From sequence record SRR20825019_616: 56,957 nucleotides of DNA; one strand, given 5' to 3'. Numbering within the stretch: the first letter of the stretch is position 1; every line of letters starts with the position of its first letter. This document shows, piece by piece, positions 9,261 through 24,582 of this stretch. The notes below the pieces were generated by a model, which saw nothing but the letters and a program-made list of their open reading frames with translations, had not been told where the DNA came from and made no database searches. The translations under genes were made by a program, and so were the position numbers.

Positions 9261-9468
9261 ACAAACTCCAAAATCGGGTAACCCCCTCGAATTTCAGTTC
9301 AATGAGAGAGCCCGAAAACCCCGCAAAGCCACGTATCACAAGGGTTACAGGCGAACTCATGGTGTAATGGACTGCTTTTGAGCCAGTGGCTAAACAAGGG
9401 GGGCACCCGCGTGCGGGGGGTTCCTTGTTGCCAGAACGTCCCTAAATCGACCTAAAGTCACACCCCAT

Positions 9469-9496
9469 ACTGCGCATAATGTATATTATGTTAAAT
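9469..9496 (+). other. dif: Chromosomal dif site (XerC/XerD)
   Basis: ACTGCGCATAA-TGTATA-TTATGTTAAAT, 26/28 identical to E. coli dif GGTGCGCATAATGTATATTATGTTAAAT; KOPS converge on it. Confidence 0.95.
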
Positions 9497-9578
9497 GGTG
9501 TACGTAGCTCTTTAAAGGTAGAAACAGCAGCCCCGGTCAAATTCCCCTCTCTTCCCATACGCCACCTTCTTCAAACCA

Positions 9579-9609
9579 TTGACTCTGCAGCTACTGCAGG
9601 GTTTTTGAT
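9579..9609 (+). promoter_or_regulatory. MerR-family (CadR/PbrR-type) promoter-operator
   Basis: -35 TTGACT, 19-bp spacer, -10 TTTGAT, dyad ACTCTGCAG-CTA-CTGCAGGGT across the spacer. Confidence 0.75.
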
Positions 9610-10038: not shown

Positions 10039-10746
10039 TTAATCGACGTAACCACCCACAGCCTGCAGAATCGTCTGTGAATTGTTGGGTGTTACCCAGG
10101 CCGCGATGGCATTTCGTTTCTGCCCTTTTTCGGGGAACTCTGGAAGTGTAACGGTCCAGCTTTTCTCTCCAGGTACTGTTATTAACTTCAACACCACGAA
10201 ATCGTGTGTGAGTTCCCGGCCGCGGTTTTCTCCAGCTTTCACGGATGTTGTTAACCCCATACCGAGTATGGCTATATGCAACTGGCCAGCCTTCTCGCCA
10301 TCAAATTCTGCCTTAAAGCGACGTTTGTCATTAACGCTTGCCCTGAGTACCCCAACCTGTTTGGTGTCGTCTGTCCAGGTTCGTTGCCCTCGAAACCATT
10401 GGCGCCATTCTTTGTTGTTGATAACGATTCCCGGAGTATAAGACTGGCTAACGTGCCCTTCACGCACATAATTCCGCTGGCGTTCGCTATAAGCAGCTTT
10501 TGCGAACGGGTCTTTCCAGCCGATGTAATCCCAGTAGTCAACGTGGAACGCCATTGGAACGAATTCTTTGAACAGCTCAGGGCTGCTCTTCAAAGAGCTC
10601 AGCCAACGATCAGCGGGAGGACAGCTGCTGCATCCCTCTGAAGTAAACAGCTCAACAACGTCGGTTTTACTCGTTCCACTAGTCCACTCTGCAGCGCTGG
10701 CAAACGACGGCAATAAGAAAAGCAATGCAATAAACCATTTTGTCAT
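10039..10746 (-). CDS. DUF1223 secreted thioredoxin-fold protein
   Basis: Signal peptide; VVELFTSEGCSSCPPAD, FHVDYWDYIGWKDPF, GENRGRELTHDFVV. Confidence 0.9.
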   Translation of the reverse strand: MTKWFIALLFLLPSFASAAEWTSGTSKTDVVELFTSEGCSSCPPADRWLSSLKSSPELFKEFVPMAFHVDYWDYIGWKDPFAKAAYSERQRNYVREGHVSQSYTPGIVINNKEWRQWFRGQRTWTDDTKQVGVLRASVNDKRRFKAEFDGEKAGQLHIAILGMGLTTSVKAGENRGRELTHDFVVLKLITVPGEKSWTVTLPEFPEKGQKRNAIAAWVTPNNSQTILQAVGGYVD

Positions 10747-10970
10747 GTGAACCTCTCATCGGATTAGCCATCTGTATTAATGGATCAGAGCAAGAGGTGC
10801 CTGCTTTGGTTCCTCCCCAAACATAACGTTTCTATAACACTTGGTGACGGTTCTTCGCCGGTTGTCGTTTACATAATGTTGCGAGAAACATGGCTTTGTC
10901 ATGTTTGCGAGGTTTGATGACGGTATAAAATGTGGATCCTCCAACGCAAGAATTTCGGGATTTTGGACAA

Positions 10971-11828
10971 ATGAAAGGCCAAAAGAGATGCCGGTACTTT
11001 CAGTACCTACAGCACCTAATGATTCTGATATTTGTGTCGTTTAGTCCGACGTTGCTTGGAGCGAACACCATCAAAATCAGCACCGGGCACTGGCCGCCGT
11101 ACCTGAGCGAAGATCTACCTGGTGGCGGTTTTGTCTCCCAGATTATTCGTGAATCCTTTGAAAGCGAAGGTGTCGACGTAGAGTTTGCATTTCTTCCCTG
11201 GTCGCGGGCGCTGGCAATGACCAAATCGGGAAAATATCAGGCCTCGGCGATCTGGTCTTGCACCGAATCAAGAAGCCGTGACTTCCTGTTCTCTTCTCCT
11301 TTACTGCCCTATCAATACGTTTTCTATCACCGCACTGCTGAGGCTTTTGACTGGGAAGCCCTTGTAGAGTTGAAAGGAAAGAAAGTTGGTCTGACACAGG
11401 ATTACAGTTACGGCGAAACACTCAGTGATGTTATTGAGAGTGGTCTCGTCGACGCTGACGTCACCACTTCTGACGCGGCTAATTTCAAGAAGCTGCTCCT
11501 TGGTCGCATTGATTTGTTTCCCATGGACCCCGTTGTGGGTGAAGCGATGATAAGAAACCAGTTTGCTTCCCAGGCTTATCAACTGACGTTTCATCCCAAA
11601 CCACTCCGGAAGGCGTTTTACCACGTGCTGTTTAACGCGGAGTCAGCCGGCCTCAGGCAGGCGTTCAATGATGGATTAGTGACGTTGCGCAACAACGGGA
11701 GGTACCAAGCCATCATTGAAAAAGCGGTCGCCGAGAACAGCACACCAGTAACTGCGCAGATACTGGAAGATAAACTGGTCAACTGGGACGCCAAGGCGGC
11801 GCCCTGCTCCCCTCCTCCTGCCAAATAA
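10971..11828 (+). CDS. Periplasmic substrate-binding protein (family 3-like), orphan
   Basis: TGHWPPY, FLPWSRA, FKKLLLGRIDL, FNDGL motifs; start uncertain (10932/10971). Confidence 0.85.
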   Translation: MKGQKRCRYFQYLQHLMILIFVSFSPTLLGANTIKISTGHWPPYLSEDLPGGGFVSQIIRESFESEGVDVEFAFLPWSRALAMTKSGKYQASAIWSCTESRSRDFLFSSPLLPYQYVFYHRTAEAFDWEALVELKGKKVGLTQDYSYGETLSDVIESGLVDADVTTSDAANFKKLLLGRIDLFPMDPVVGEAMIRNQFASQAYQLTFHPKPLRKAFYHVLFNAESAGLRQAFNDGLVTLRNNGRYQAIIEKAVAENSTPVTAQILEDKLVNWDAKAAPCSPPPAK

Positions 11829-12050
11829 TGCGGGTTTGATCGTATCGTTAGGTTCCATGCCGTTTAAGACTTGCTTATACGATGAATGCAGCTAAACTCC
11901 TATTCAGCTTGCATTTTTCATCGCTGTTTGGCTAAGAAATGTGCCATCCTTGGCAGTGTGACCGCCAGGTTTGTCAGTAGCAGGTCTCGGAGTGCAATCG
12001 TTGACTGAATCGTTTCAAATAATGCTAAGAGTAAAGTGCTGAGATTGCGC

Positions 12051-14180
12051 ATGCAGGAACGTCTATCGCCCCCAAGCAGAGCTTTACGCCCCAAGGTGGT
12101 TTCGAGGGTGGTAGCCGCCGTTCTTTGCTATTCAACCTCTTCCATCGTTGTTGCCGCGGATGATTCCCTTTGGGACATTCCCCTGGAAGAGCTTGGTCAA
12201 ATTCGTGTTGTCTCAATCGCCTCTGGAACCGAAACACCTCTCGATAAGGCCGCTGCAATTACTTCGGTCATTAATGCGGACGATATTGCAGCCATGGGCG
12301 CCACGGACTTGGACCAGGTACTTGAAACAGTGCCTGGGCTCCATGTGAATCACTCTGATCAGGCGTTCTCGCCCAAATACGTGTTTCGGGGCATTACTTC
12401 CAGCAATAACGCCCAAGCGCTTCTTCTTATCAACGGCATTCCTACAACCACCATGATGTATGGGAACCGTGGCAACGCCTGGGGCGGTATGCCCGTGAAG
12501 GCCATTGAGAGAATTGAAGTCATTCGGGGCCCAGGCTCGGCTCTTTATGGGGCCGATGCCTACTCCGGTGTCATTAATATCACTACAAAGAACCATCAAT
12601 CGATCAACGACCAAACCGTCGGTGGCAGAGTTGGCAGCTTTGATACACAGGGAGCCTGGTTGGAGTCGGGCCACCAAATCGGCGATATGGGGCTCAGCCT
12701 GGTACTGGAATATCAAACGACGGATGGTTGGGATGAAACTATAGAACGTGATGCGCAGACCAACTTCGACGAAACGTTTGGTACGTCAGCGTCGTTGGCC
12801 CCCGGCCCAGTCAATACAGGTGTCGACCAAGTAGATGCTCGATTCGAATTGAGCGGACAGCGATGGACTTTTCGGGCAGGCCTGCAGGACAGAGGAAATC
12901 TCGGCACCGGCCCAGGCGTTGCGCAGGCGTTGGATCCTGAAGGACAGTTCTCGTCTCGACGTGTGAATGCCGATTACAGTTATCGGTGGTCTGATCTGGC
13001 CGAAGGCCTTGATGTCGAGGCACGGGTCTCTTACTTCAATATAACGCAGGATCCGGAGAACGACATCGTTCTCTATCCACCAGGTGCGTTTAACGGAAAC
13101 TTCCCTGAGGGCCTGATTGGAAGTCCCGGCTATAAAGAGAATCAGTTTAGGTTTGATCTGAACGCTATTTATCGGGGCCTCGAAAACCACCGCATACACA
13201 CCGGGATTGGTACTTTGTGGGCGGATCTTTATGAAGTTACTGAACGCAAGAACTTCAACCCTGATTTCAGCCCCAAAGGCAGTGTAGTGGATGTGTCTGA
13301 TGACCCAACGGAAGTCTGGATGCCTGAGGAAGACCGCACGAACTACTATGCGTTCATTCAAGATGAATGGCAGTTTGCACAAAACTGGCAATTGGTCAGC
13401 GGCATTCGTTTTGACGACTATTCTGACTTCGGCAGCACGTTAAACCCAAGAGCTGCCCTGATATGGGCAACTACCGATAACATCACGACCAAGCTGCTCT
13501 ATGGTCGGGCGTTTCGGGCCCCATCACTGAACGAGCTATATGTCGCCAATAACCCGGTGTTCATGGGTAACGACGAGCTTGACGCAGAAACCATCGACAC
13601 GTTCGAGATAGGCGTTTCTCATCAGATTACAGCCCAACTGCTCTACGGGGTTAACCTGTTCTACTATGAAATTGATGATCTTATTAACGCGGTCCCAATG
13701 TCAGGGCTCATTGCCACGCAATATAGAAATGCGGGCCAACGTACCGGGCACGGTGGCGAACTCGAGTTGACGTATCAGGTGTACGAAGACCTGTCATTAC
13801 AAGGGAACTACGCTTATCAAACGGCAAAAGACGAAGGCACCGGGCAATCGGTTGGCGAAGCCCCTAACCATCAGATTTACACCCGTGTTGACTGGACGGT
13901 ATCGCCACAATGGTTGCTGAGCTCACAGGTAAACTGGGTGGGCAAGCAAAAAAGGGCCGCTGGCGACCAAAGAGAGCCCGTATCGGACTACACCACCGTC
14001 GATATGACCCTTCGTACCCGGGGGCTATGGCAAGGGCTGGATCTTTCACTATCCGTTCGTAACGTTTTCGACGAGGACGTGAGAGACCCCAGCCCGTTTG
14101 CTGACCCTGCCCCACCCATTCCAAATGACTTCCCCATGCCGGGGCGCACTGTAGTCGGTGAACTCTCCTATAGCTTTTAG
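12051..14180 (+). CDS. TonB-dependent receptor (YfiR-associated type)
   Basis: Plug motif IERIEVIRGPGSALYGADAYSGVINI, N-terminal LWDIPLEELGQIRVVSIAS, C-terminal F; no STN domain; start uncertain. Confidence 0.92.
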   Translation: MQERLSPPSRALRPKVVSRVVAAVLCYSTSSIVVAADDSLWDIPLEELGQIRVVSIASGTETPLDKAAAITSVINADDIAAMGATDLDQVLETVPGLHVNHSDQAFSPKYVFRGITSSNNAQALLLINGIPTTTMMYGNRGNAWGGMPVKAIERIEVIRGPGSALYGADAYSGVINITTKNHQSINDQTVGGRVGSFDTQGAWLESGHQIGDMGLSLVLEYQTTDGWDETIERDAQTNFDETFGTSASLAPGPVNTGVDQVDARFELSGQRWTFRAGLQDRGNLGTGPGVAQALDPEGQFSSRRVNADYSYRWSDLAEGLDVEARVSYFNITQDPENDIVLYPPGAFNGNFPEGLIGSPGYKENQFRFDLNAIYRGLENHRIHTGIGTLWADLYEVTERKNFNPDFSPKGSVVDVSDDPTEVWMPEEDRTNYYAFIQDEWQFAQNWQLVSGIRFDDYSDFGSTLNPRAALIWATTDNITTKLLYGRAFRAPSLNELYVANNPVFMGNDELDAETIDTFEIGVSHQITAQLLYGVNLFYYEIDDLINAVPMSGLIATQYRNAGQRTGHGGELELTYQVYEDLSLQGNYAYQTAKDEGTGQSVGEAPNHQIYTRVDWTVSPQWLLSSQVNWVGKQKRAAGDQREPVSDYTTVDMTLRTRGLWQGLDLSLSVRNVFDEDVRDPSPFADPAPPIPNDFPMPGRTVVGELSYSF

Positions 14181-14195
14181 CCGGGCACTGACTGC

Positions 14196-14993
14196 CTAAC
14201 CTTCCCAGTCCCTTTTTTCCCTGCCATGGTAAACGATACTTTCACAGCGGATCGGGAAGAAGCTACCTTCGCGGCGACTTTTGGTATCCCGGAAACACGG
14301 AGCCATTCCTGCTACGAAGCAAGGGGTTAGGATAAGTTGGTACTCCTCGCAACTAAACCCCATGTCAGCAGCTAACGCCGCGTGCACAGCTGCCACATTC
14401 ATCGAGTATCCGTACGTCGTGTTCAAGTGTTCGTAGACCGAAAACGCCATCTTGAGGTAGCGTCCCTCAGAGAAGCCGTACTCTTTTGCTTTATCCAATG
14501 TGAACGCAATGCGTTCGTCTGTTGTCGCGAGCGGACGCCCATAACCATAAAGAATTCGCCCTAAGGATTTTTCGTGGTCAACGAAGTCCTCCAACATTCC
14601 TCCCTCATCGCTCCATTCACCTGCTCTGTAGAAGAAATCAAGGGCTCTAACCTCTGGCCGACGGCCGTATATAGAGGCTTCCGAAATACTTAATCCCGCC
14701 ATGAGACCCAAAGACGGTGTTGTTCGAACGGAGCCTGCCAATGCCGCAACGTGATTGGGCCAGATAGATGGATCCGGATAGCTGGTGCCAACCCAATAGG
14801 AGTTGAGCATCTTAGCGACATTTTCTCCTGGGTCTTTCCCAAGAATGCAGTACAGGTATAGATGCAGCCATTCCAGGTGATCCAGTTCATGGTGGAGATC
14901 CTTACCATGCATAACCACACGTTCTGTCAGAAAGGCTTTTCCGATACGGGTCAGCCAGTGACTTTCTGTTTCAAGTAGCTGCTCATGGTTCAT
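14196..14993 (-). CDS. Citrate synthase/citryl-CoA lyase-fold protein B (degenerate active site)
   Basis: WLTRIG...HGKDL N-terminus, GYGRPLATTDER, MNVAAVHAALAADMGF correspond to CS-like motifs. Confidence 0.75.
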   Translation of the reverse strand: MNHEQLLETESHWLTRIGKAFLTERVVMHGKDLHHELDHLEWLHLYLYCILGKDPGENVAKMLNSYWVGTSYPDPSIWPNHVAALAGSVRTTPSLGLMAGLSISEASIYGRRPEVRALDFFYRAGEWSDEGGMLEDFVDHEKSLGRILYGYGRPLATTDERIAFTLDKAKEYGFSEGRYLKMAFSVYEHLNTTYGYSMNVAAVHAALAADMGFSCEEYQLILTPCFVAGMAPCFRDTKSRREGSFFPIRCESIVYHGREKRDWEG

Positions 14994-15820
14994 CGTCCGC
15001 CCTCCTCGTCTCGCTGTTTAAACGGCCCTGGATCATCTTCCAGTTCAATGGCGGAGCTATAAAATGGGAATTTCTTCCATCCCATTTTACGTTGTTCCAA
15101 CGCATGGACCGCTGCACCGGGCAGCCTGAGCATGAGATAAAGCATGCTACCCTGGTCGCGATCCAGACCAAGATCAACGAACGCCGCCGCCGCAACAGAT
15201 GTTATGGATATCGGGCATCCGAAGAACTCCTCCAAGGCCCCGCGTTGGTTTTGCAGCCAGTGCAACGCTCCGTCTTTCGGCGCGAACTGCACCAAAAGTT
15301 CCAGCGACTGCAGGAGCGTGGTTGGAATCTGATCACCGTTAGGATCAAACCCTGGAGGATGTTCTATCGCGGGCCATATGTCGGCTCTTTCATCTTCCTC
15401 TGGGGCCTGCAGCCTTGATTTCCAGCGATCCACGTCCTGACCACATTCTTCCCATAAGCGGATACAGATCTCCAATTCCTGGGAACCGCCATACAGACCG
15501 GACCCAACAGCAAGTGCTGACATAAGTGCGGAGCTATGGTTAGTGGCAGCTACGCCGCCGTTCATAGCCGCACGAATGCTTGCTTCCTTGGGGCCCTGGT
15601 TGGCAAGAACCAGGGCAAGCTTCTCAAGTAGCACAGCTTCATCCGGCCGGGGCCGTTCACCCTTGAACATCAATAGTAAATACTCGAACCAACCAGCCTT
15701 GGCGATCACCTGGCCATACACATCATAGCCATGACAGTAGCTGGCCTTAGCGGCAAACGGGTTGGACTCTTCTGGCTCTTCAAACCAGAAATCAGAGTGA
15801 TAGACGTAATCTGAGGGCAC
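14990..15820 (-). CDS. Citrate synthase/citryl-CoA lyase-fold protein A (degenerate active site)
   Basis: HGYDV, ANQGPKEASIRAA, PGFDP, LRLPGAAVHALEQ; GTG start; overlaps the next gene by 4 bp. Confidence 0.78.
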   Translation of the reverse strand: MPSDYVYHSDFWFEEPEESNPFAAKASYCHGYDVYGQVIAKAGWFEYLLLMFKGERPRPDEAVLLEKLALVLANQGPKEASIRAAMNGGVAATNHSSALMSALAVGSGLYGGSQELEICIRLWEECGQDVDRWKSRLQAPEEDERADIWPAIEHPPGFDPNGDQIPTTLLQSLELLVQFAPKDGALHWLQNQRGALEEFFGCPISITSVAAAAFVDLGLDRDQGSMLYLMLRLPGAAVHALEQRKMGWKKFPFYSSAIELEDDPGPFKQRDEEGGR

Positions 15821-15835
15821 GCGATTTCCCCTAAG

Positions 15836-17572
15836 TTAATTGTCGTTGGGTATCGAGCCGGTTAACACCTTCATTCTCGATCCTAATGGAGGTACCTGAT
15901 CACCATCGACGATGATATCCAGAAGGCAAGGGCCGGGACGTGACAGAATTTCGGGTATGTCCAGGTCTATCAACTGCTCCATGGTCTGTACTGTGTGAGA
16001 CTCAACACCCAATGCTTTGGCCATCATGGCAAAATCCACACTTGGTAGTTGCGTGGCGACCCGTTCCCCTCCGCTCAATTTCTGTCCATGATTGACCATG
16101 CCTAATGAAGCATCGTTCAGAACGAGCATCAATACATTCAGGTTTTCCTGGAGCGCAATCGTCAATTCCTGACCTGACATCAGATAGCTGCCGTCTCCCG
16201 TAAAACAAACAACCGGCTTGTCCCGGTTGGCTGCGGCCATCCCGATAGAACTACCGATCGCCCAGCCCATTGCAGCAAACCCCAACCCGATATTGAACAG
16301 ATTCCTTTCAGCTGGCATGCCTTTCGGGCGCCGAACATTCCAGTAATGAATCCCCCACAGGAAGCTGTTTCCGGTATCCATAAGGACTCGGGAATCCCGG
16401 GGGCATATCGTACTCATGAAATTCATCAGTGCCTGGGCTTTAATGCGCCCCGATCTTTCAAGACAAACCTCAGGTTCATCAAAACGGGTATTTTCCGGCA
16501 AGGGAGCATCGCTGGTAACTGGCTGTCTGGACTCTCCAGTAGCGTCACCAATCAATTTCTCCGCGATCGCTCCAAATACGAGTTTCGGGGAGCCCAGAAC
16601 TACCAACCTCGCCATTGTTGAACGGCTGAGATGTGAAGGGTTGCTGGAAATATGAATCAGGCGGTCCGACAGTATGGTGGTCGGGTCCCATCCACACGTG
16701 GATACTTCATCGAGGGCTGTGCCGATGGCTACGACACGATCCGCATTCTCCACCTTTAACGCGTCGGTCGCGCTATTGTGGCCGGCGAAACCGAATACGC
16801 CCCTGTAGAGTGGATGAAAGCTATCTACGAGCCCTTTTCCTCGCGGCGTGGTAACGAGTAGCCAATTACGTGATTCCGCCAACGCTACCAATATATCATT
16901 TGCCCCCGTAGCGCCCTCACCCAACACCAGCGTGACCTTATCGGTGCACTCTAAATCGTCCAGCAGCGCCTGGAGGGACGCCTGGTTGGGAGCAACTTCG
17001 TGGTTGAGAAAAGCATTGAGCGCCTGATCCTTTACGTTATCCGGAATCCGATGGCGCATTACATCCAGGGGGATCGCAAGGTGTGCCGGCCCGGGTTGAT
17101 TACTCACAGCATGGCTTACAGCCTGAAGCAGTTTGGTTTCGAGTTGGGCAGGATGCGATACCAGAGTGTTGTAACGCGTACATTTGGCAAACATCTCTAC
17201 TGTATGAATTCCTGTGCAAGATGTTTCCTGCAATGAACCCTGGCCAAACTTGTCCAGCCCTGTTTGCGCCGTTATGACGAGAATGGGAATGCCGTCCGCA
17301 TAGGCTGATGCGACACCGGTTAACAGGTTCGTGGCACCAGGACCAGCAGTTGAACAACAGACGCCTATTTTTCCAGTTTCGCGGGCATACCCTTCTGCCA
17401 TGAAGGCCGCTCCGGATTCATGACGAGCAGTAATGGTCCGAATGCCTCCCCGGCGTTCACTTCTTGCCAACGCATCATAAAATGGTTCAATGCTCCCGCC
17501 AGGAACGCCAAACACATACTCGACACCCAGACGCTCCAGGTAGCGTAATATCAAGTCACCATTTTCGAGCAT
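15836..17572 (-). CDS. Thiamine diphosphate-dependent enzyme (acetolactate synthase large-subunit-like)
   Basis: FGVPGG, RHESGAAFMAEGY, TAGPGATN, GDGSYLM...VLND ThDP motif; no adjacent ilvH/ilvN subunit. Confidence 0.9.
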   Translation of the reverse strand: MLENGDLILRYLERLGVEYVFGVPGGSIEPFYDALARSERRGGIRTITARHESGAAFMAEGYARETGKIGVCCSTAGPGATNLLTGVASAYADGIPILVITAQTGLDKFGQGSLQETSCTGIHTVEMFAKCTRYNTLVSHPAQLETKLLQAVSHAVSNQPGPAHLAIPLDVMRHRIPDNVKDQALNAFLNHEVAPNQASLQALLDDLECTDKVTLVLGEGATGANDILVALAESRNWLLVTTPRGKGLVDSFHPLYRGVFGFAGHNSATDALKVENADRVVAIGTALDEVSTCGWDPTTILSDRLIHISSNPSHLSRSTMARLVVLGSPKLVFGAIAEKLIGDATGESRQPVTSDAPLPENTRFDEPEVCLERSGRIKAQALMNFMSTICPRDSRVLMDTGNSFLWGIHYWNVRRPKGMPAERNLFNIGLGFAAMGWAIGSSIGMAAANRDKPVVCFTGDGSYLMSGQELTIALQENLNVLMLVLNDASLGMVNHGQKLSGGERVATQLPSVDFAMMAKALGVESHTVQTMEQLIDLDIPEILSRPGPCLLDIIVDGDQVPPLGSRMKVLTGSIPNDN

Positions 17573-17631
17573 TGATAATCCTTTTGGAGGTTACGTCCAT
17601 TATTGAAGTGTGAACAAAGGCGGAGAGGTAG

Positions 17632-19323
17632 CTATTCCAGCGGTCGAGGCATGGAAATCCCATACCCCTGGGCATAATCGAGCCCCAGTTCAACCAGACG
17701 GGCTCTCACCTCGTCGTTCTCCACGAACTCGGCAACCGTCTTGAGTCCTGCGGAGTGGCCAATCCGGTTGCACGCATCGACTATCGACAAATCGATTGGG
17801 TCGTCCAGCAGGTTGCGGACGAAACCACCATCAATTTTCAGGTAGTCCACTGGCAGGGCTTTCAGATAGGAGAACGAACTCATGCCCGCGCCGAAATCAT
17901 CAAGCGCGAATTTGAACCCTCTTCTTTTGGCGGAATTGATGAACCTCTGAGTCGCGTTCAGATTGGCAATGGCGGAAGTTTCAGTAATTTCAAAGCAGAT
18001 ACGCTCGGGAATCAGCTTGTACCGCTCCGCTAACTGGCTGATGTACAGAAACAGTTCTGGTTCGTTAAACGAGCTTCCAGACAGATTAATAAAGAACGTT
18101 CCTGTGCTCTCACGCCCGAGCCCAGTGCGATCAAGGTAGTCAAATGCCAGGTCGATGACCTTGCGATCAACTCGTGTCATCAAGTTGAAGCGTTCCGCCG
18201 CAGGAATGAAGGCTCCTGGAGGTACGATGTCATCCCCTTCGTTCAGGCGGACCAGAAATTCGGTGCGATAACCGTCGTTGGCTTCTGGCTGAAGGGCAAC
18301 CATTTCCTGCTGCCATAGGCAGAAACTGTTGTTTTGCAGAGCCTGCTGAATTCGGCTGGTCCAGTTCATATCCCGCTGACGTTGCTGCATATCACTGTCA
18401 TCGGTTTCGTAAAGCTGGACGTTATTGCGTCCCCGATCCTTGGCGGCGTAGCAGGCCAGGTCGGCGTGGCTCAGAAGCTCACCGGCACTGTTGTAGTTTT
18501 CGTTGATCAAAACCATACCGATGCTGAGCGACACCGAGAACGGCTTGTTCTGCCAAACAAAGCGGAACTCATGGACCACTTCACACAGCTTTTCAGCGAC
18601 CTTGTGTGCATGGACCGCGTCGCAACCGCGCAGCAGTACTCCAAATTCGTCGCCGCCGAGGCGAGCCAGGGTATCATCAGAGCGAATTTGAAGTGACAGC
18701 AATGCGGCGACCTGCTTAAGCAAGTAATCCCCAGCCACATGACCACAGGTGTCGTTTATGATCTTGAACTGGTCAAGGTCAAGATAGAGCAGTACATGAT
18801 GACGGCCGGTTTTATGGGTGTCTTCGAGCGCCTGCACCAGCCGCCGCTCGAATTCCCGGCGGTTCACAAGATCAGTCAGGCTGTCATGATAGGCCATATG
18901 CTCCAGGGCATTCTCGGCAACACGCTTGGCCTGGCGCATGAATCCTTCACGTACTTCCCGATCAATGGCAGGAATCAACCGGGACAGGTTGTCCTTCATG
19001 ATGTAATCCTGCGCACCGGCTTTCATGGCGGTAACGGCAACGCCCTCGCCGATCGTTCCGGATACGATGATTACTGGCAGGTCCTTGCAGTACTTCTTGG
19101 TCAGCTCCAATACCCTGAACGAAGAGAAGCCGGGCATGTTGTGGTCGGTAATGACGATATCCCACTTACCCCGGCGAAGGGCATAGGACAGACGGTCTTC
19201 GCTGTCTACCAACTCATGATAGGGGGCTATGCCTCCTTTGCGCATCTCTCGCAGTAGAAGCAGCGCATCGTCTTCTGAATCTTCGACGATCAACATCCGT
19301 AGAGGGCTGGCTGTGTCTGTCAA
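17632..19323 (-). CDS. REC-GGDEF-EAL response regulator (c-di-GMP enzyme)
   Basis: LIVEDSEDD/TDHNMP receiver; RSDD I-site five residues before GGDEF; EFLVR and DDFGAGMSS EAL motifs; likely TTG start at 19323. Confidence 0.92.
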   Translation of the reverse strand: MTDTASPLRMLIVEDSEDDALLLLREMRKGGIAPYHELVDSEDRLSYALRRGKWDIVITDHNMPGFSSFRVLELTKKYCKDLPVIIVSGTIGEGVAVTAMKAGAQDYIMKDNLSRLIPAIDREVREGFMRQAKRVAENALEHMAYHDSLTDLVNRREFERRLVQALEDTHKTGRHHVLLYLDLDQFKIINDTCGHVAGDYLLKQVAALLSLQIRSDDTLARLGGDEFGVLLRGCDAVHAHKVAEKLCEVVHEFRFVWQNKPFSVSLSIGMVLINENYNSAGELLSHADLACYAAKDRGRNNVQLYETDDSDMQQRQRDMNWTSRIQQALQNNSFCLWQQEMVALQPEANDGYRTEFLVRLNEGDDIVPPGAFIPAAERFNLMTRVDRKVIDLAFDYLDRTGLGRESTGTFFINLSGSSFNEPELFLYISQLAERYKLIPERICFEITETSAIANLNATQRFINSAKRRGFKFALDDFGAGMSSFSYLKALPVDYLKIDGGFVRNLLDDPIDLSIVDACNRIGHSAGLKTVAEFVENDEVRARLVELGLDYAQGYGISMPRPLE

Positions 19324-19336
19324 TGGCCTTACCTTT

Positions 19337-19792
19337 TTATAACGAGCGAACCGCACCTGCCTTGGGTACTTTATTGACAAAAAGCCAATAGCGGGCAAGC
19401 AACTTCATTTGTTCCGTAAACTCCCGATAATTGATCGACTTGGTGATAAAGCTGTTGGCACCCAGACGGTATGCATTCAACAGGTCTGCCGGCTCATCAG
19501 AGGATGTAACCATAACGACTGGCAGCCAGTTGGTCAGTGGAGAGGACCGAATACCTTTCAGGACCTCCAGGCCACTGACCTTGGGAAGCTTCACATCAAG
19601 CAAAACAAGACCGAGCGAATCCAGATCTTTACACGGCTGCCTGGCATCGTTGCCAAACAGGAAGTCCAGGGCTTCCTGCCCGTCTTCTTTTACGATGACA
19701 GGGCTGTTTTCGCTAGCACTCTTGAGGGCTCGCACTGCCAGAACCTGATCATCCGGGTTGTCTTCAACCACAAGGATTGAATGGCCATCCAT
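19337..19792 (-). CDS. Single-domain response regulator (Rcp1-like)
   Basis: ILVVEDNPDD, LLDVKLPKVSG, AYRLGANSFITK. Confidence 0.9.
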   Translation of the reverse strand: MDGHSILVVEDNPDDQVLAVRALKSASENSPVIVKEDGQEALDFLFGNDARQPCKDLDSLGLVLLDVKLPKVSGLEVLKGIRSSPLTNWLPVVMVTSSDEPADLLNAYRLGANSFITKSINYREFTEQMKLLARYWLFVNKVPKAGAVRSL

Positions 19793-19846
19793 GATTTTAT
19801 TTGCCCTTTCAATGAATTGCATTAATAGGTTGAATCTAACTACAGT

Positions 19847-21301
19847 CTAGTCCTGATCTCCCGAAACAGGCAACTTCACAACAAAACTTGCCCCCTCGCC
19901 CAATTGCGACGTAGCGGAAATATCGCCATGGTGCCGGCGAACAACGCGGTATACAGTCGCCAGGCCAATACCTGTGCCGCCGAACTCCGACGGCGTATGA
20001 AGTCGATTGAATGCCACAAACAGTTTGTCGATATACCTCATATCGAAGCCGACACCGTTATCACGAACCTCAATAGCAACCCAGCGCCCTTCTCTTCGAG
20101 ACAACACTTCGACAATTCGTTTTTCTTCTTTGGCGCTGTATTTCCAGGCGTTCGCCATCAGGTTCTGGAAGGCAACACGCAGCATTCGGCTGTCGCCTAC
20201 AACCCACATACCCGGCTGTATGAGAATTTCCGTTGGCACATCATCGCTGATGTCTTGCAGTTCTTCCGCAATTTCTTCCAACATCTGGCTCAAGTCTATC
20301 GTCTGATTTTCCATGGACTGTCGGCTGACGCGGGACAGAACAAGCAACCCATCGATCAGCCCCGCCATCCGTACACTGGCCGCGCGGATTCGCTTCAGAT
20401 AATCCTTACCGATCTCATTCAACTGATCGCCACAATCCTCTTCCAGGGCTTGCCCAAACCCTTCAACGGCTCTCAGGGGCTGCCTGAGGTCATGGGAGAC
20501 CGAGTAACTGAACGCTTCCAGTTCACGGTTGGCCATGCTCAGCTCGGAGGTCCTGGCCTCGACGATGCGTTCCAGGCTGTCACGGCTTTCCAGGATGCGG
20601 CGGTTCTGTTGCTGGATGGTGCTGATCATCTCATTGAAGGTGTTACCCAGACGCCCGAGTTCGTCGGTGCCGGAAACCGGCGCACGAATGGAATAGTCGT
20701 GATCCTGGGCAATGCGCTCAGCTGTCTCTGAAAGCTTGAGAATGGGTTCGGATACGATTCTCTGTAACCTGAGCGCCAGGAATACCAGTGCGATGAGGAT
20801 CACCGCCCCGATACCGGAGGCTACGGATACAAAGGTCCGGATATGGCCCCGCAAAACTTCAAGGTGTGATGAGAGGAAAAGCTGCCCGACCACTTCGTTG
20901 TCCAGTGTGACCGGCATCAGTAACTGGTAGACGTCTCCGACGAACCCTACTTCCAACGACGAACCAACCGATGGGCATTGCCCCTGTGGCCGGCCTGAAA
21001 GAGACGTCATCACGTCCCCTTGCTGGTTGTAGACACAGGCCTGCCGAATAGTGTCGATACGCTTGAGGCTGGTGATAATACTGCTCAGCTGCTCGTTGTC
21101 CTCGAACACCAGGGCGGCAGCGGACTGCTCCGCCAGGATGCCAGCGATGACATGAAGCTCGGATTCAAGCTGTTTCCGGTAATTCTGGTTCTCAACAAAG
21201 ATGAGGCTCGCGCAGACCAGGGTGATGCCAAGTGCGCTGGTGAACAACGTAAGGAATAGCAGTTTGGTTTTCAGTCGCCAGTATCGCCACCGCCCCATCA
21301 T
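19847..21301 (-). CDS. Sensor histidine kinase with CHASE8-like periplasmic domain and HAMP
   Basis: Two TMs, AAALVFED periplasmic motif as in YfiN, HAMP DELGRLGNTFNEM, H-box FSYSVSHDLRQPL, DNGVGF and GTGIGL boxes. Confidence 0.92.
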   Translation of the reverse strand: MMGRWRYWRLKTKLLFLTLFTSALGITLVCASLIFVENQNYRKQLESELHVIAGILAEQSAAALVFEDNEQLSSIITSLKRIDTIRQACVYNQQGDVMTSLSGRPQGQCPSVGSSLEVGFVGDVYQLLMPVTLDNEVVGQLFLSSHLEVLRGHIRTFVSVASGIGAVILIALVFLALRLQRIVSEPILKLSETAERIAQDHDYSIRAPVSGTDELGRLGNTFNEMISTIQQQNRRILESRDSLERIVEARTSELSMANRELEAFSYSVSHDLRQPLRAVEGFGQALEEDCGDQLNEIGKDYLKRIRAASVRMAGLIDGLLVLSRVSRQSMENQTIDLSQMLEEIAEELQDISDDVPTEILIQPGMWVVGDSRMLRVAFQNLMANAWKYSAKEEKRIVEVLSRREGRWVAIEVRDNGVGFDMRYIDKLFVAFNRLHTPSEFGGTGIGLATVYRVVRRHHGDISATSQLGEGASFVVKLPVSGDQD

Positions 21302-21849
21302 CTCAGGACCCTCACCGCCAGTTCCAGAAGCCTGGAGTTAATGGTCAGGCCCGCTTCCATTGCGGCTTTCAGGCTGATTTCGAAGCGAATAACATTACCC
21401 TGCTTCACGTAACCGACAATCCCGCCCTTGCGAATGAAGTCTGGCAAATCACTCACTGTCAGTATGCCTTCGTGGCTCTCGGCCATTTCGAGCAGTTCGT
21501 CGACATTTCTGGACTGGGATTGCCCTATATAAAGTACGTCGCATCCCGCGATATCGGCCGGAACGTTGGGGTATCGAAGCTGAAGCGCCCTGCCCTGGGA
21601 TTTACGACCTTGCATGGGGTCAAGCAGGTTGCCGAAGGGATCATCGCCGTAGATGCACACATCAAGAGGATCGGAAGCGGTTGCTCCATTTGACCAGGTA
21701 ATAAAACGTGTGAAGTTGTAGAGGAACGCCGCTTTGACTTCATATTCCGAGCGTATGGAAGCATGCGCCGACGCCAGGCTGAGACACAGGCTGAGAACTA
21801 GGGGAATAGAATATTTCAGGTGATCCCTCACGAGTCGGCCACGAAACAA
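21298..21849 (-). CDS. YfiR/HmsC-family (DUF4154) periplasmic protein
   Basis: EYEVKAAFLYNFTRFITW, VCIYGDDPF, GCDVLYI, IRFEI...INSRLLELA. Confidence 0.9.
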   Translation of the reverse strand: MFRGRLVRDHLKYSIPLVLSLCLSLASAHASIRSEYEVKAAFLYNFTRFITWSNGATASDPLDVCIYGDDPFGNLLDPMQGRKSQGRALQLRYPNVPADIAGCDVLYIGQSQSRNVDELLEMAESHEGILTVSDLPDFIRKGGIVGYVKQGNVIRFEISLKAAMEAGLTINSRLLELAVRVLR

Positions 21850-22020
21850 GTAGTCATGTTGAAAAATGAATTATATGGGAGCCCGGCACCTACGGAAGGT
21901 TAGCACCCGTTTCGCTGGCGTCAACTGTATCTTAAAACTGTACTCCCCCAATAGCACCCTTCTGTGTCTGTTCCGCCAACACCGGTCCAATAGAATTTTA
22001 ACAAGCACCGGAGGTGGAAT

Positions 22021-22212
22021 ATGAACATCGACAAAGTCCTGTTTCGCACACTCAAACACTATATTGAGAACCAAAAAACCCGCACACGCCTAAGAAGACG
22101 CCTGCGGGGAATGCCGATGAGAGAGCTGGATCGTTTGGCATGGGACATCGGAACAACCAGAGCTCAGCTGCTACGAGAGGCACACAGCCCGTTCTGGAAG
22201 ACGCATCGCTGA
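22021..22212 (+). CDS. DUF1127-like small protein
   Basis: Arg-rich, RELDRLAWDIGTTRAQLLREAHSPFW; GGAGG RBS. Confidence 0.75.
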   Translation: MNIDKVLFRTLKHYIENQKTRTRLRRRLRGMPMRELDRLAWDIGTTRAQLLREAHSPFWKTHR

Positions 22213-22240
22213 GCCCTGGGGAAAGGGATCAGCGTGACGA

Positions 22241-22489
22241 CTACTCCCGCCAGAATGGCTTGTGCGCTTCCTCTACCAGACTGCCGTGAGGCAACCCTAT
22301 GTCTTTTTCGACCAGTCTGGTGTCCATTTCATACAGCGACTGCCTCAATTGGTACCGGCGACTCCAACGTCCCGCATAGCGCTTGATAGCAGCGATGGCT
22401 CGCCTCATGAAAGCGTTCTTTGAGGGAACACATGCAATCGATGGTGCTTGTCTGAGTGTTTGATTGACGAGGATGGCTTTCATTTTCAT
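22241..22489 (-). CDS. DUF1127 small protein
   Basis: RQSLYEMDTRLVEKDIGL...EEAHKPFWR. Confidence 0.8.
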   Translation of the reverse strand: MKMKAILVNQTLRQAPSIACVPSKNAFMRRAIAAIKRYAGRWSRRYQLRQSLYEMDTRLVEKDIGLPHGSLVEEAHKPFWRE

Positions 22490-22563
22490 CTTCCTTTAAA
22501 TATGAACGATGACTACAATGAAACCATTCTCGACCCGCCGTACCAGGTCGTCCATCGACATTA

Positions 22564-22582
22564 TTTGAACCCGGTGTTCGAA
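22564..22582. promoter_or_regulatory. Imperfect dyad upstream of LysR, probable LysR binding site
   Basis: TTTGAAC-CCGGT-GTTCGAA (one mismatch) directly before the LysR start in a divergent region. Confidence 0.4.
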
Positions 22583-22586
22583 AAAT

Positions 22587-23471
22587 ATGAACATAAAGCT
22601 GGACAGGCTCAAGTCTTTTCTTCTGGTGGCTGAAGAGGCCAATCTGACTCGCGCGGCCGCTCGTCGTCATTCGACACCGTCTGCGGTGAGCGAGCACCTT
22701 CGCCAGCTTGAGGAAGAGTTCGAGGTTCTGCTGTTCGAGCGCAGTAAACAGGGAATGTCCCTGACCGCGGCTGGCGAGCGCTTGCTCATGCCCGTTCGCC
22801 AGGTGTTTACCGCCGTGGAAGATGTACGTAACACTGCGCTTTCCTTGCGTTCGGTGCCCCACGCAACACTCCGCCTTGGACTGAACTCTCCGCCTGAATA
22901 CCTTCGTGTAGACGAAGTGCTTCGCCGGAAGACGGACGCTCTCCCTCACCTCAACCTGGAAATGAAAACCCGGGCGTCAACCCAGATTGTCGAGCAAGTG
23001 CTTTCAGAAGAGCTGGATCTGGGGTATGTCTATGGCAACTGCGAGGACCCGAGGTTGAAGGTGGTGCCACTCACGCCAGTGCGTATTTCCGTTGTTGGCC
23101 CTGCGGATACGGAGCTCGACACCCTACCAGCCGACTTCGAGTCACGTCGGCGCCTGCCCTGGGTCTGGCCCAACCGGGACTGCCCGTTTTTTGATTTCAT
23201 GAAGGACCTGCTTGGCCCTCAGGCAAGCCTCTCCGACGCGGCCACCAGTTCCGACGACGAGTATTCCACGGTGGTTATGGTCAAATCCGGCATGGGGTTT
23301 GGGCTTGTGGAGCGGGAGTTCGCGGAACAATCACAGAGCCGCGGAGGGGTGCGTATTTTTGATGATCCGGAGATGATCACCAACCTCAATCTGATATGCG
23401 GCGTGCGAAACTATGAACGTTCAGAATTGCGGGCACTGTTCGATTTGATCGTCAGTGAATGGAAACCGTAA
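22587..23471 (+). CDS. LysR-family transcriptional regulator
   Basis: NLTRAAARRHSTPSAVSEHLRQLEEEFEVLLFERS HTH; 294 aa. Confidence 0.92.
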   Translation: MNIKLDRLKSFLLVAEEANLTRAAARRHSTPSAVSEHLRQLEEEFEVLLFERSKQGMSLTAAGERLLMPVRQVFTAVEDVRNTALSLRSVPHATLRLGLNSPPEYLRVDEVLRRKTDALPHLNLEMKTRASTQIVEQVLSEELDLGYVYGNCEDPRLKVVPLTPVRISVVGPADTELDTLPADFESRRRLPWVWPNRDCPFFDFMKDLLGPQASLSDAATSSDDEYSTVVMVKSGMGFGLVEREFAEQSQSRGGVRIFDDPEMITNLNLICGVRNYERSELRALFDLIVSEWKP

Positions 23472-23479
23472 CGGTATGC

Positions 23480-24172
23480 TCACGCCTTGGTGAACTTGTT
23501 AACCGAGCTGATTTGCTCACCGTTCCAGATAAACTCGAAATGCGCCGTCTGGATAACACTGCGGACGTGCCTGGGAGTGAACAATCCCCAGCAGGTATCG
23601 CCGGGTTTTCGAACAGAGTGATACCGAAGCCCTTCCGAGCCTGCCCTGTAGAGCCTGCGACCATAACTCCGTGAAGCCGCGTAGCTGTCAGCATCGTAGA
23701 TGGCGTCCCCAAAGGAGAGGGTCGTGGCGTCGTGCAGGGTCATCGTCCCCACCTTGCACTTAAGCCCCCGGAACACCAGCCGGTCGTAGTCCAAACCGTG
23801 AACGCCCTGCCAGTAGCGTGACTGGTGATAGGCCACCTCCGCTATCGCTGTATCGATGCTCTCCCCCATATACAGAACACCGTACTGGCCATCGCTGAAG
23901 CGGCTGCCTTCGGGGTTTACATGGGTAAACGGGCCGGTGGCGTAGGAGCAGCCAGGGATTCCGAACGGGATCTCCGCTTTGCGGATCAGGTTGAGATTAC
24001 CCAACTCGGTCTGAAGACGGGGGTTGGTGAGCGCTTGAAGTTCGTAGAGCGCATCAAACTCATCTTCGTCCGCCACATCATCAAACAGGCTGATGGGCGG
24101 AAACCTCGAGTTGATCAGGCGAAACCCGGTAATGCTCTCGGGTGTGATCGTTGGCGGCAGTTCCTGACTCAC
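23480..24172 (-). CDS. RES-domain toxin (MbcT/ParT-like NAD+-consuming)
   Basis: RLINSRFPP, GSRFSDGQYGVLY, TAIAEVAYH, GLRYHSVR. Confidence 0.88.
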   Translation of the reverse strand: MSQELPPTITPESITGFRLINSRFPPISLFDDVADEDEFDALYELQALTNPRLQTELGNLNLIRKAEIPFGIPGCSYATGPFTHVNPEGSRFSDGQYGVLYMGESIDTAIAEVAYHQSRYWQGVHGLDYDRLVFRGLKCKVGTMTLHDATTLSFGDAIYDADSYAASRSYGRRLYRAGSEGLRYHSVRKPGDTCWGLFTPRHVRSVIQTAHFEFIWNGEQISSVNKFTKA

Positions 24173-24582
24173 CAGAGCCCCCCGCGCAATACATCGATAC
24201 GCCTGAACGTTTCATACAAAGCAGCAAACTGGCCCGTACTGATAATCTCAAGGGGACTTTTGCCGTTGAAGTACGGATTGTCGTTTTTCAGGGCCATAAA
24301 GCCGTAAACGTTCTTCGGGTTCTCGAAGATCATCCGCAGGCAGCCATGGATGTTGACCAGATAACTGAGACGTTCAATCTGGTCATGGGTCAGGCTCGCC
24401 TGCTCCGGCGCTTTACGATACTTGTAGTACGCCGGGCGGGAGATCTGAAGGATTTTCTGTACCTGCTCGGGAGTACAGCCCCAACGGTCCAGAATATTAA
24501 ACACGGTTTTAAGGCCAACGCCGGAGACGTTGTTCTTTTGGACGGTTGCGAGTTTCTGCGCGTTACTCATAGCGGACACCAC
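24169..24582 (-). CDS. Xre/MbcA/ParS antitoxin
   Basis: FNILDRWG, DQIERLSYLVNIH, NDNPYFNGKSPLE; 4-bp overlap with the RES gene. Confidence 0.88.
   Translation of the reverse strand: MVSAMSNAQKLATVQKNNVSGVGLKTVFNILDRWGCTPEQVQKILQISRPAYYKYRKAPEQASLTHDQIERLSYLVNIHGCLRMIFENPKNVYGFMALKNDNPYFNGKSPLEIISTGQFAALYETFRRIDVLRGGLW

Follow-up and report, generated by a model that had tools for sequence, protein, structure and literature searches.

A candidate make-and-sense locus joining a ThDP and citryl-CoA-lyase-fold cassette and a TonB-dependent receptor to c-di-GMP signalling genes

What is a set of three enzyme-like genes doing in one run with a periplasmic sensor protein, a histidine kinase and genes for cyclic di-GMP (c-di-GMP) signalling, directly facing a TonB-dependent receptor (TBDR)? 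The question is raised by eight genes in sequence record SRR20825019_616, a stretch of 56,957 nucleotides that is referred to here as the window. A sequence-only reading of the window had proposed that the enzymes, one of them dependent on thiamine diphosphate (ThDP), make a small diffusible metabolite that is received by the TBDR and relayed via the sensor genes to c-di-GMP. The locus was followed up by domain, structure, neighbourhood and phylogenetic comparisons. Based on these we put the probability at roughly one half that the eight genes are one unit that makes a compound, re-imports it and senses it in order to set c-di-GMP, and we regard the cluster as a candidate produce-and-sense circuit whose parts are not known to serve in such a role.

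The eight genes and their recurrence across genomes

The locus consists of seven minus-strand genes and a plus-strand TBDR gene. The open reading frame (ORF) coordinates of the earlier reading were exact and every one of its domain calls was upheld by Pfam. The features are:

12036..14180, plus strand: TBDR, from its ORF and the Pfam Plug and barrel domains
14196..14993, minus strand: CSa, a citryl-CoA-lyase-fold protein of 265 aa, from a weak Pfam Citrate_synt match and a structure model
14990..15820, minus strand: CSb, a citryl-CoA-lyase-fold protein of 276 aa, from a weak Pfam Citrate_synt match and a profile match
15836..17572, minus strand: ThDP-dependent carboligase-type enzyme of 578 aa, from Pfam TPP_enzyme_N/_M/_C
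17632..19398, minus strand: REC-GGDEF-EAL response regulator, start codon uncertain, from Pfam
19337..19822, minus strand: single-domain receiver protein, from Pfam Response_reg
19847..21301, minus strand: membrane sensor histidine kinase, CHASE8-HAMP-HisKA-HATPase, from Pfam
21298..21849, minus strand: periplasmic YfiR-like (DUF4154) protein, first gene of the run, from Pfam
12300..17700, no strand assigned: block swapped between lineages, comprising the larger part of the TBDR gene and the CSa, CSb and ThDP genes, from DNA identity to the Marinobacter salarius record L020 and from trees

The tight packing described earlier also stands. Overlaps of 4 bp were located at 21298-21301 (YfiR-like stop and kinase start) and at 14990-14993 (CSb stop and CSa start), the gaps are 59 bp or less (kinase to receiver 24 bp, GGDEF-EAL to ThDP gene 59 bp, ThDP gene to the first lyase-fold gene 15 bp) and the TBDR stop lies 15 bp from the last minus-strand stop. 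The receiver gene and the REC-GGDEF-EAL gene overlap by 62 bp, contingent on a TTG start; as the receiver domain begins at residue 36, the real start may lie downstream of the listed TTG. The window matches a record of Marinobacter algicola DG893 (L011), with 99% protein identity for the query gene.

Linkage was evaluated in 62 loci obtained via alignment of CSa relatives, with one genome per species. These loci came from Marinobacter, Hahella, Oleiphilus, Fluviicoccus, Agitococcus, Ketobacter, Colwellia, Cognaticolwellia, Algicola and Planctobacterium, and from metagenome-assembled genomes. Clustering of their ORFs recovered the TBDR in 61 loci, CSa in 60, the ThDP enzyme in 58 and CSb in 55, followed by the GGDEF-EAL protein (41), the kinase (38), the YfiR-like protein (32) and the receiver (27), and no further gene family occurred in more than 8 of the 62. 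The two CSa misses are ORF-picking artefacts, since tblastn found CSa in 62 out of 62. The TBDR directly adjoins the enzymes according to tblastn, and the single locus without a TBDR has just 429 bp of flank. In about 8 of the loci the TBDR gene has a short-chain dehydrogenase (SDR) gene as its neighbour. The conserved set of the 62 loci contained no transcription factor, inner-membrane importer or exporter, and no non-ribosomal peptide synthetase (NRPS) or NRPS-independent siderophore (NIS) synthetase, reductase or periplasmic binding protein with an ABC importer.

The gene order differed between the carriers. In Marinobacter it is YfiR-HK-REC-GGDEF/EAL-ThDP-CSb-CSa (HK, histidine kinase), convergent with the TBDR. 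In Hahella and the Oleiphilaceae (8 loci) ThDP-CSb-CSa converges on YfiR-HK-(REC)-GGDEF/EAL-TBDR, often with an SDR gene between the two. Loci of Colwellia, Planctobacterium and Cognaticolwellia (6, of which 3 are partial) carry REC-REC-PAS-GGDEF-EAL and the enzymes, converging on TBDR-kinase(sCache_4)-PF04392 protein, and a Moraxellaceae/Ketobacter type is made up of the enzymes and one or two TBDRs with no adjacent sensor.

A ThDP homologue (E<=1e-110) was found in 73 of 401 genomes of the order, representing 29 of 157 genus codes. Roughly 20 kb around 40 of these matches from 38 genomes was inspected; this sample is spread over family codes and non-random, and it may share genomes with the 62 loci and is not independent of them. 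As determined by tblastn, the CS-like pair lies beside the ThDP gene in 34 of the 40 order-level loci (one cut by a contig end), a FabH-like gene replaces the pair in 3 (L080/L123, L126 and L136) and neither is present in 3. The cluster includes a TBDR in 32 loci, a PF04392 protein with a kinase in 26 and a YfiR-like protein with a kinase in 1. The commonest form is one co-directional run with a PF04392 binding protein in place of YfiR. The convergent TBDR noted in the sequence-only reading is a true feature of the window but peculiar to Marinobacter. In L117 the run consists of ThDP, CS, CS, TBDR, the PF04392 protein and a 1400-aa sCache_4-HAMP-HisKA-HATPase-REC-Hpt-REC-GGDEF-EAL protein. In L119-L121, L127 and others the TBDR separates the ThDP gene from the CS pair (ThDP-TBDR-CSb-CSa), L083 reads CSb-CSa-ThDP-TBDR-unknown-hybrid kinase, and L080 holds ThDP, FabH-like, TBDR, PF04392 protein, a giant kinase-GGDEF-EAL protein and a second TBDR. 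The catalytic triad of FabH is Cys/His/Asn, and the L080 protein, the sole FabH-like sequence inspected, has Cys, His and Asn at these positions. None of these proteins reached a curated NCBIfam cut-off. Wherever a signalling output was present it was c-di-GMP turnover, and never a transcription factor for uptake genes.

The sequence-only reading depended on linkage in other genomes as well, and the neighbourhood check found the modules together in at least five gene orders and in several families. As the same gene set recurs across genera, the arrangement goes beyond chance. In two genomes a second system or a second ThDP gene was present: G316 (contigs L114 and L153) has a sensor-less system of the enzymes and two TBDRs plus a complete PF04392/giant-kinase system, and G048 (L121 and L122) has a second, solitary ThDP paralogue.

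Within Marinobacter, CSa, the YfiR-like protein and the TBDR orthologue were present together in the same 5 of 25 genomes and in none of the other 20 (E<=0.001 for CSa and the YfiR-like protein, E<=1e-60 for the TBDR). A comparison of the window with the M. salarius R9SW1 record (L020) gave a DNA identity of 96-100% across 9.6-25 kb, the partial bin at 9300-9599 being at 93%. Between about 12300 and 17700 the identity dropped to 58-84%, with a core of 58-76%; L021 behaved alike. This divergent block corresponds to the TBDR beyond its first ~90 codons together with CSa, CSb and the ThDP gene. In a tree of the YfiR-like and GGDEF-EAL proteins the window grouped with L020 and L021 (support 100), while in a tree of ThDP and CSa these two fell in another Marinobacter clade (support 97). 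The approximately unbiased (AU) test rejected a clade of the window, L020 and L021 on the enzyme data with p 1.3e-7 and a log-likelihood difference of 201, the tested group having been chosen after the protein identities were seen. As the trees are otherwise congruent, this amounts to one replacement and not to rampant shuffling. The enzymes and the TBDR accordingly travel as a unit that is separate from the sensor genes. At 3700-13000 of L020 the kinase is broken up into three ORFs and CSb and the TBDR into two each, the TBDR with one in-frame TAG, and there are single-base gaps in DNA that is otherwise 98-100% identical; this reflects either decay of the system after the cassette swap or sequencing errors.

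Recurrent linkage, part exchange and joint gain and loss in Marinobacter together support the proposal that the enzymes, the TBDR and the YfiR/kinase/c-di-GMP genes are functionally linked.

The enzyme cassette

The ThDP enzyme has Pfam TPP_enzyme_N, _M and _C domains (139, 86 and 110 bits) and no NCBIfam model matched it at cut-off. Its best matches in the PDB by phmmer were BbmA (8x3x, 328 bits) and CsmA (8x3z, 295 bits), followed by E. coli acetohydroxyacid synthase (AHAS) I at 216 bits. A family-profile search gave the same order with 410, 374 and 296 bits. The structure model of the enzyme (pLDDT 82) returned as top Foldseek entries structures titled 'ThDP-dependent HKA synthase', HKA being taken by us to stand for alpha-hydroxy-beta-keto acid. 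By these measures the enzyme appears to be closest to the HKA synthases, and the likeness (32% identity, TMq 0.81) suggests an HKA-synthase activity in which two 2-oxo acids would be joined. The HKA synthases BbmA and CsmA and also AHAS share with it a common three-domain ThDP fold, the identities to BbmA and CsmA being 32% and 29%, respectively. BbmA and CsmA are only ~30% identical to the window enzyme and are known here by their PDB molecule names and entry titles; the review PMC12247030 mentions none of BbmA, CsmA, ScyA, 8X3X and butenolide. An identity as acetolactate (acetohydroxyacid) synthase was considered and rejected on the account of a TIGR00118 score of 308.5 against a cut-off of 538 and of 8x3x and 8x3z outscoring every AHAS. 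Pfam detected no gene for a small regulatory AHAS subunit in the cluster.

CSa and CSb had been described earlier as citrate-synthase-fold proteins. The fold stands, in its citryl-CoA lyase (CCL) form, as found by Foldseek and by profile, but the catalytic His/His/Asp set is gone. Pfam Citrate_synt scores were 21.8 bits for CSa and 17.6 bits for CSb, both below the 27-bit cut-off, and the NCBIfam citryl-CoA lyase scores of the pair were 48.8 against 245 and 39.7 against 261. The AlphaFold model of CSa (pLDDT 88.5) had citryl-CoA lyase 6hxp as its best Foldseek match (TMq 0.75, E 1e-9), and the next matches were the lyase modules of ATP-citrate lyase (ACLY). A CSb profile matched CCL 6hxp at E 8e-8 and a search of the ESM Atlas with CSb returned only clusters named 'citrate synthase'. 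CSa and CSb aligned with each other in hhalign at a probability of 93% and 19% identity, and the two thus appear to be distant paralogues.

Two His residues and an Asp are catalytic in citrate synthase and citryl-CoA lyase. In alignments of CSa to both enzymes, the first His is replaced by Tyr, the second by Arg (or lost in a one-residue deletion) and the Asp by Ala, as reflected in the motifs of CSa (IYGRRP vs LHGRAN, GYG-RP vs GYGH and NVA vs NVD). CSb has Tyr at the first position (YGG vs HGG) and a hydrophobic residue or Ser for the Asp, with an invariant H154 within two residues of the second catalytic His position. CSa retains the Arg of the citrate-synthase D-x-R motif 'DPR', as 'DER'. 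The two are not decaying genes: within Marinobacter no other gene of the cluster is as well conserved as CSa, with 83-94% identity against 67-77% for YfiR from the same loci.

A CSa/CSb heterodimer with exchanged termini was predicted with an ipSAE of 0.71, the best control reaching 0.31. In calibration, 51 of 78 solved complexes reached this mark, as did 2 of 108 mismatched pairs, and the prediction runs had at least 98% of contacts in common with a partner pLDDT of at least 91. As homo-oligomers of the fold have already been solved, the score may mirror likeness to the citrate synthase/CCL oligomers. The pair therefore resembles citryl-CoA lyase and citrate synthase (6hxp; the CCL module of ATP-citrate lyase) in its fold, in the predicted dimer with exchanged termini and, for CSa, in the D-x-R Arg; it differs in being a predicted heterodimer of 19%-identical paralogues with the catalytic set replaced and with scores below cut-off.

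Receptor, sensor genes and expression

The TBDR matched the Pfam Plug (84.6 bits) and barrel (159.1 bits) models and has a 22-strand-type barrel, with no STN domain or N-terminal signalling extension according to Pfam. It fell below every NCBIfam cut-off, the best scores being 180.7 against 316.85 for TonB-hemin and 167.5 against 645 for TOL_0244. Its best family and structure matches, all sub-cut-off, were receptors for haem, siderophores, colicin I (CirA) and B12.

The YfiR-like protein has a signal-peptide-like N-terminus and matched DUF4154/YfiR (PF13689) with 137.8 bits against a cut-off of 24.9. Its NCBIfam scores were 122.4 against 125 for the TOL_0243 YfiR-like model and 34.2 against 85 for the true YfiR equivalog model. 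The kinase carries CHASE8 (57.4 bits), HAMP (46.9), HisKA (51.2) and HATPase_c (79.1) domains and scored 149.4 against a cut-off of 194 with the NCBIfam model 'sensor histidine kinase, YfiR-like protein-associated'. The single receiver matched Response_reg with 63.7 bits. The REC-GGDEF-EAL protein (REC 46, GGDEF 149 and EAL 188 bits) would make and/or break c-di-GMP, judging by its domains, and its translation contains the motifs GGDEF, an RxxD-like RSDD, EFL and DDFGAG.

A straightforward non-homologous swap of the kinase among relatives was rejected, as the sensor domains cross-match weakly. A weak sCache_3_2 match (16.4 bits) lies on the window CHASE8 domain and a weak CHASE8 match (16.8 bits) on the kinase of one relative; the CHASE8 and sCache-type sensor domains may thus be related. 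Only the periplasmic partner, DUF4154 versus PF04392, is clearly unrelated between the variants. The sole NCBIfam match of the PF04392 proteins (L080 9089-10039; L117 4276-5220) is to the tryptophan-binding TrpX, at 38-42 bits against a cut-off of 390. Some HKA synthases use aromatic 2-oxo acids as substrates, and the two observations taken together are a faint lead to an aromatic product.

RNA-Seq libraries contain the locus as assembled contigs of ~99% identity, and contigs from 3 of the 4 runs, belonging to 2 of the 3 studies, bridge the junction between the GGDEF-EAL and ThDP genes. One contig, X2 (11203-20847), runs across the convergent genes and contigs are therefore not to be taken as transcripts; they give no strand, ends or single transcript, and DNA in the libraries is possible. 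Read in this way they are weakly compatible with co-transcription of GGDEF-EAL and ThDP. The 59-bp gap before the ThDP gene has no terminator-like hairpin. A promoter scan of 11700-22700 found fewer promoter-like sites than shuffled sequences, and a consensus scan gave no promoter for the seven-gene run in the 740-bp space upstream. This space (22000-22500), between the YfiR-like gene and a divergent LysR gene, contains an 82-aa minus-strand ORF with no Pfam match.

Proposed circuit and competing explanations

The chemistry and signalling, including the direction of synthesis, the export and the identity of the ligand, are what we infer from the observations above, as follows. In the cytoplasm the ThDP enzyme would couple a 2-oxo acid to a second one or to a carbonyl partner, giving an alpha-hydroxy-beta-keto acid or an acyloin. 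The CSa/CSb heterodimer, in which the Claisen set is lost but the carboxylate-binding Arg kept, would process this product, with an SDR added in some relatives. The product would then exit the cell, be returned across the outer membrane by the cognate TBDR, free or metal-complexed, and act in the periplasm on the YfiR-like protein and the CHASE8 kinase, or in most relatives on their equivalents, a PF04392 binding protein with a hybrid kinase of the Cache type. The kinase would finally phosphorylate the single receiver and the REC-GGDEF-EAL protein, and the resulting shift in c-di-GMP would decide between an attached and a motile lifestyle.

A biosynthetic role of the enzymes is favoured over breakdown on the account of the HKA-synthase likeness, the swap of the CS pair for a FabH-like gene, the occasional SDR and the missing lyase residues. 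HKA carries the same tertiary alpha-hydroxy-carboxylate as citrate, and this would be a chemical reason for a citrate-binding fold to handle it. As DUF4154 is replaced by PF04392 on the same core, a small periplasmic ligand fits better than mechanical contact between receptor and adaptor. Sensing by a periplasmic kinase that depends on a TBDR does exist: in Pseudomonas aeruginosa, according to PMC8001512, ferric enterobactin crosses the outer membrane via PfeA or PirA before it is sensed by PfeS in the periplasm. Entry into the cytoplasm is not needed for sensing in that system, and in these respects the PfeA/PfeS-PfeR system resembles the one proposed here; its ligand is the siderophore of another species, its output is transcription of uptake genes and, unlike the window, it has no periplasmic adaptor, linked synthesis genes or c-di-GMP.

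Other known systems resemble parts of the locus. The NCBIfam trio NF053590 (TOL_0244 receptor), NF053591 (TOL_0243 YfiR-like) and NF053592 (kinase N-terminus) comprises the same three kinds of envelope protein. These are the best or near-best NCBIfam matches of the window proteins, yet all are sub-cut-off at the scores given above (167.5/645, 122.4/125 and 149.4/194). The window TBDR is moreover not adjacent to the YfiR-like gene, lying 7 kb away on the other strand, while in Hahella and the Oleiphilaceae all three are in one run in the order YfiR-HK-...-TBDR. The window adds two receivers with c-di-GMP output and the three-enzyme cassette to this trio, and trios lacking the enzymes are present in related genera. 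YfiBNR (TpbB/DgcN; P. aeruginosa and E. coli) and HmsCDE (Yersinia) are alike in their periplasmic YfiR fold, CHASE8-HAMP sensor and c-di-GMP output. In the window, by contrast, the CHASE8-HAMP protein ends in HisKA-HATPase_c, GGDEF is in a separate protein and c-di-GMP comes two steps later, and no OmpA-like lipoprotein of the YfiB/HmsE kind was found among the eight genes or their neighbours (10039-11828 and 22587-24172), the TBDR being the outer-membrane member. Compared to the FecA/FpvA-type transducers, the window TBDR has Plug and barrel only and no sigma or anti-sigma family was found among the conserved neighbours.

The synthases of the Cqs and Lqs systems depend on pyridoxal phosphate and their sensors recognise the ligand within the membrane, with no TBDR involved. 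The analogy drawn earlier to these systems (CqsA/CqsS and LqsA/LqsS) survived as one of logic, a hydroxyketone synthase beside a sensor kinase; it did not extend to the proteins, since Pfam found no aminotransferase-class domain, the candidate synthase is ThDP-dependent and the kinase is of the CHASE8 type. The remark that no system of this composition has been characterised was sustained by literature searches, whose coverage falls short of most subscription journals: these returned no publication on the gene combination, nothing on a TBDR with DUF4154 or a CHASE8 kinase with a TBDR, and no experimental study of the NCBIfam TBDR/YfiR-like/kinase trio.

A number of observations weigh against the make, re-import and sense circuit. 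A near-identical YfiR-like protein and kinase stand beside cassettes that differ by about a quarter to a third of their residues, which is awkward if the YfiR/kinase pair reads the variable part of the product and argues against its doing so. As both CSa and CSb are without the catalytic Asp and the first His, they might not be enzymes. No exporter is conserved in the 62 loci, and a product of three enzymes would be small enough for porins, leaving the need for a TBDR unexplained unless the product is scarce or metal-bound. The ThDP superfamily also includes catabolic lyases and decarboxylases. The contigs of the fourth RNA run (X3) stop at 17450 and resume at 17581, a gap that is no finding in itself. 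A TBDR is not adjacent in 8 of the 40 order-level loci (one at a contig end), and the ThDP gene is alone in 3. Lastly, of the 27 non-Marinobacter loci whose flank is long enough, 10 (the Moraxellaceae/Ketobacter type) have a sensor-less core of enzymes and TBDR, as do the order-level loci L114, L115, L132, L139 and L150. Sensing is therefore not obligatory and signalling may be an add-on to a make-and-take-up function. Sensor-less cores might make use of a sensor whose gene lies elsewhere in the genome.

These sensor-less cores favour in particular an explanation that puts acquisition first, which we consider rather unlikely overall. Here the enzymes would make a small alpha-hydroxy-carboxylate chelator, such as a metallophore or another aid to scavenging, the TBDR would import its loaded form and the sensor, in loci that have one, would only report uptake to c-di-GMP, much as siderophore pathways signal to their regulators. 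The haem, siderophore, CirA and B12 receptors matched by the TBDR, albeit below cut-offs, agree with this, as do the citrate-like tertiary alpha-hydroxy-carboxylate of HKA, by chemical reasoning, and the 'DER' Arg kept by CSa. The exchange of enzymes and receptor as a block also resembles siderophore synthesis and receptor types. The hallmarks of a Fur-regulated siderophore locus, i.e. a Fur box, an NRPS/NIS synthetase and an inner-membrane importer, were on the other hand all missing. Across the 62 loci, Fur-box-like sites in front of the TBDR, ThDP and YfiR genes were no better than shuffles (best 13-14 out of 19, with shuffles reaching 15), and the conserved set holds neither synthetase nor reductase, ABC importer with a binding protein or exporter. 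An output that is always c-di-GMP where present, and never a regulator of uptake genes, fits poorly as well.

Of comparably low probability in our estimate is an explanation in which the compound is foreign, e.g. an algal or hydrocarbon-associated metabolite that the TBDR imports, the sensor answering with a shift in c-di-GMP for settling and the enzymes degrading or detoxifying it. Clusters of a TBDR and enzymes are commonly catabolic, C-C cleaving enzymes are found, as the PDB matches show, in the ThDP superfamily as well as among proteins of the citryl-CoA-lyase fold, and many carrier genera are marine, surface-associated or oil-associated. The TBDR/YfiR/kinase trios found without enzymes could moreover sense ligands made elsewhere. 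Against this, the loci have neither a conserved inner-membrane transporter that would supply the cytoplasmic enzymes nor a conserved transcriptional regulator, the catalytic residues of the lyases are gone, the nearest solved ThDP relatives are synthases, and the exchange of the CS pair for a FabH-like condensing enzyme points to assembly and not cleavage.

That two unrelated modules, a metabolic cassette and an envelope sensor of a generic kind, have simply ended up as neighbours, as the opposite strand of the window TBDR, a possible independent start of the enzymes after the 59-bp gap and the enzyme-free trios would allow, is highly improbable given an association in at least five gene orders across families, including co-directional single runs, its all-or-none distribution in 25 Marinobacter genomes and the lack of a terminator-like site in the 59-bp gap.

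If the make, re-import and sense circuit is true, it combines new synthase chemistry with a TonB-gated periplasmic route of c-di-GMP reception for bacterial communication or public-good sensing, in marine colonisers of algae, particles and oil. What the catalogued TBDR/YfiR/kinase trios sense would also become testable, as the genes for synthesis of the likely ligand lie beside the sensor. We suggest tentatively, and with clearly less confidence than for the circuit itself, that such loci make up a widespread class of self-signalling systems, with a ThDP/lyase-fold or ThDP/FabH-like synthase of a small cue derived from a hydroxy-keto acid, TonB-gated import, a periplasmic adaptor and kinase, and c-di-GMP, in which exchange of the synthase/receptor cassette would give rise to strain 'dialects'. 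Such a class would also supply a first kind of ligand for the uncharacterised TBDR/YfiR/kinase trios. For enzymology, the locus offers a conserved citryl-CoA-lyase fold that has lost the Claisen set and is evolutionarily interchangeable with a FabH-like condensing enzyme. The carrier M. algicola DG893 is culturable, which makes the question testable by ordinary genetics and liquid chromatography-mass spectrometry (LC-MS).

The remainder of the window is ordinary chromosome. At 23480-24582 on the minus strand a RES-domain protein (125 bits) is encoded directly downstream of an Xre-like, antitoxin-type helix-turn-helix protein (54 bits). The pair resembles RES-Xre toxin-antitoxin systems and adjoins a LysR regulator whose conservation next to the cluster is limited to 4 loci. 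Two fusion genes unrelated to the cluster lie further along the plus strand, one joining a pyridine-nucleotide-disulphide oxidoreductase to AIR-synthase-related (SelD-like) domains (38765-41041) and the other an OsmC domain to a YcaO cyclodehydratase (52479-54674).

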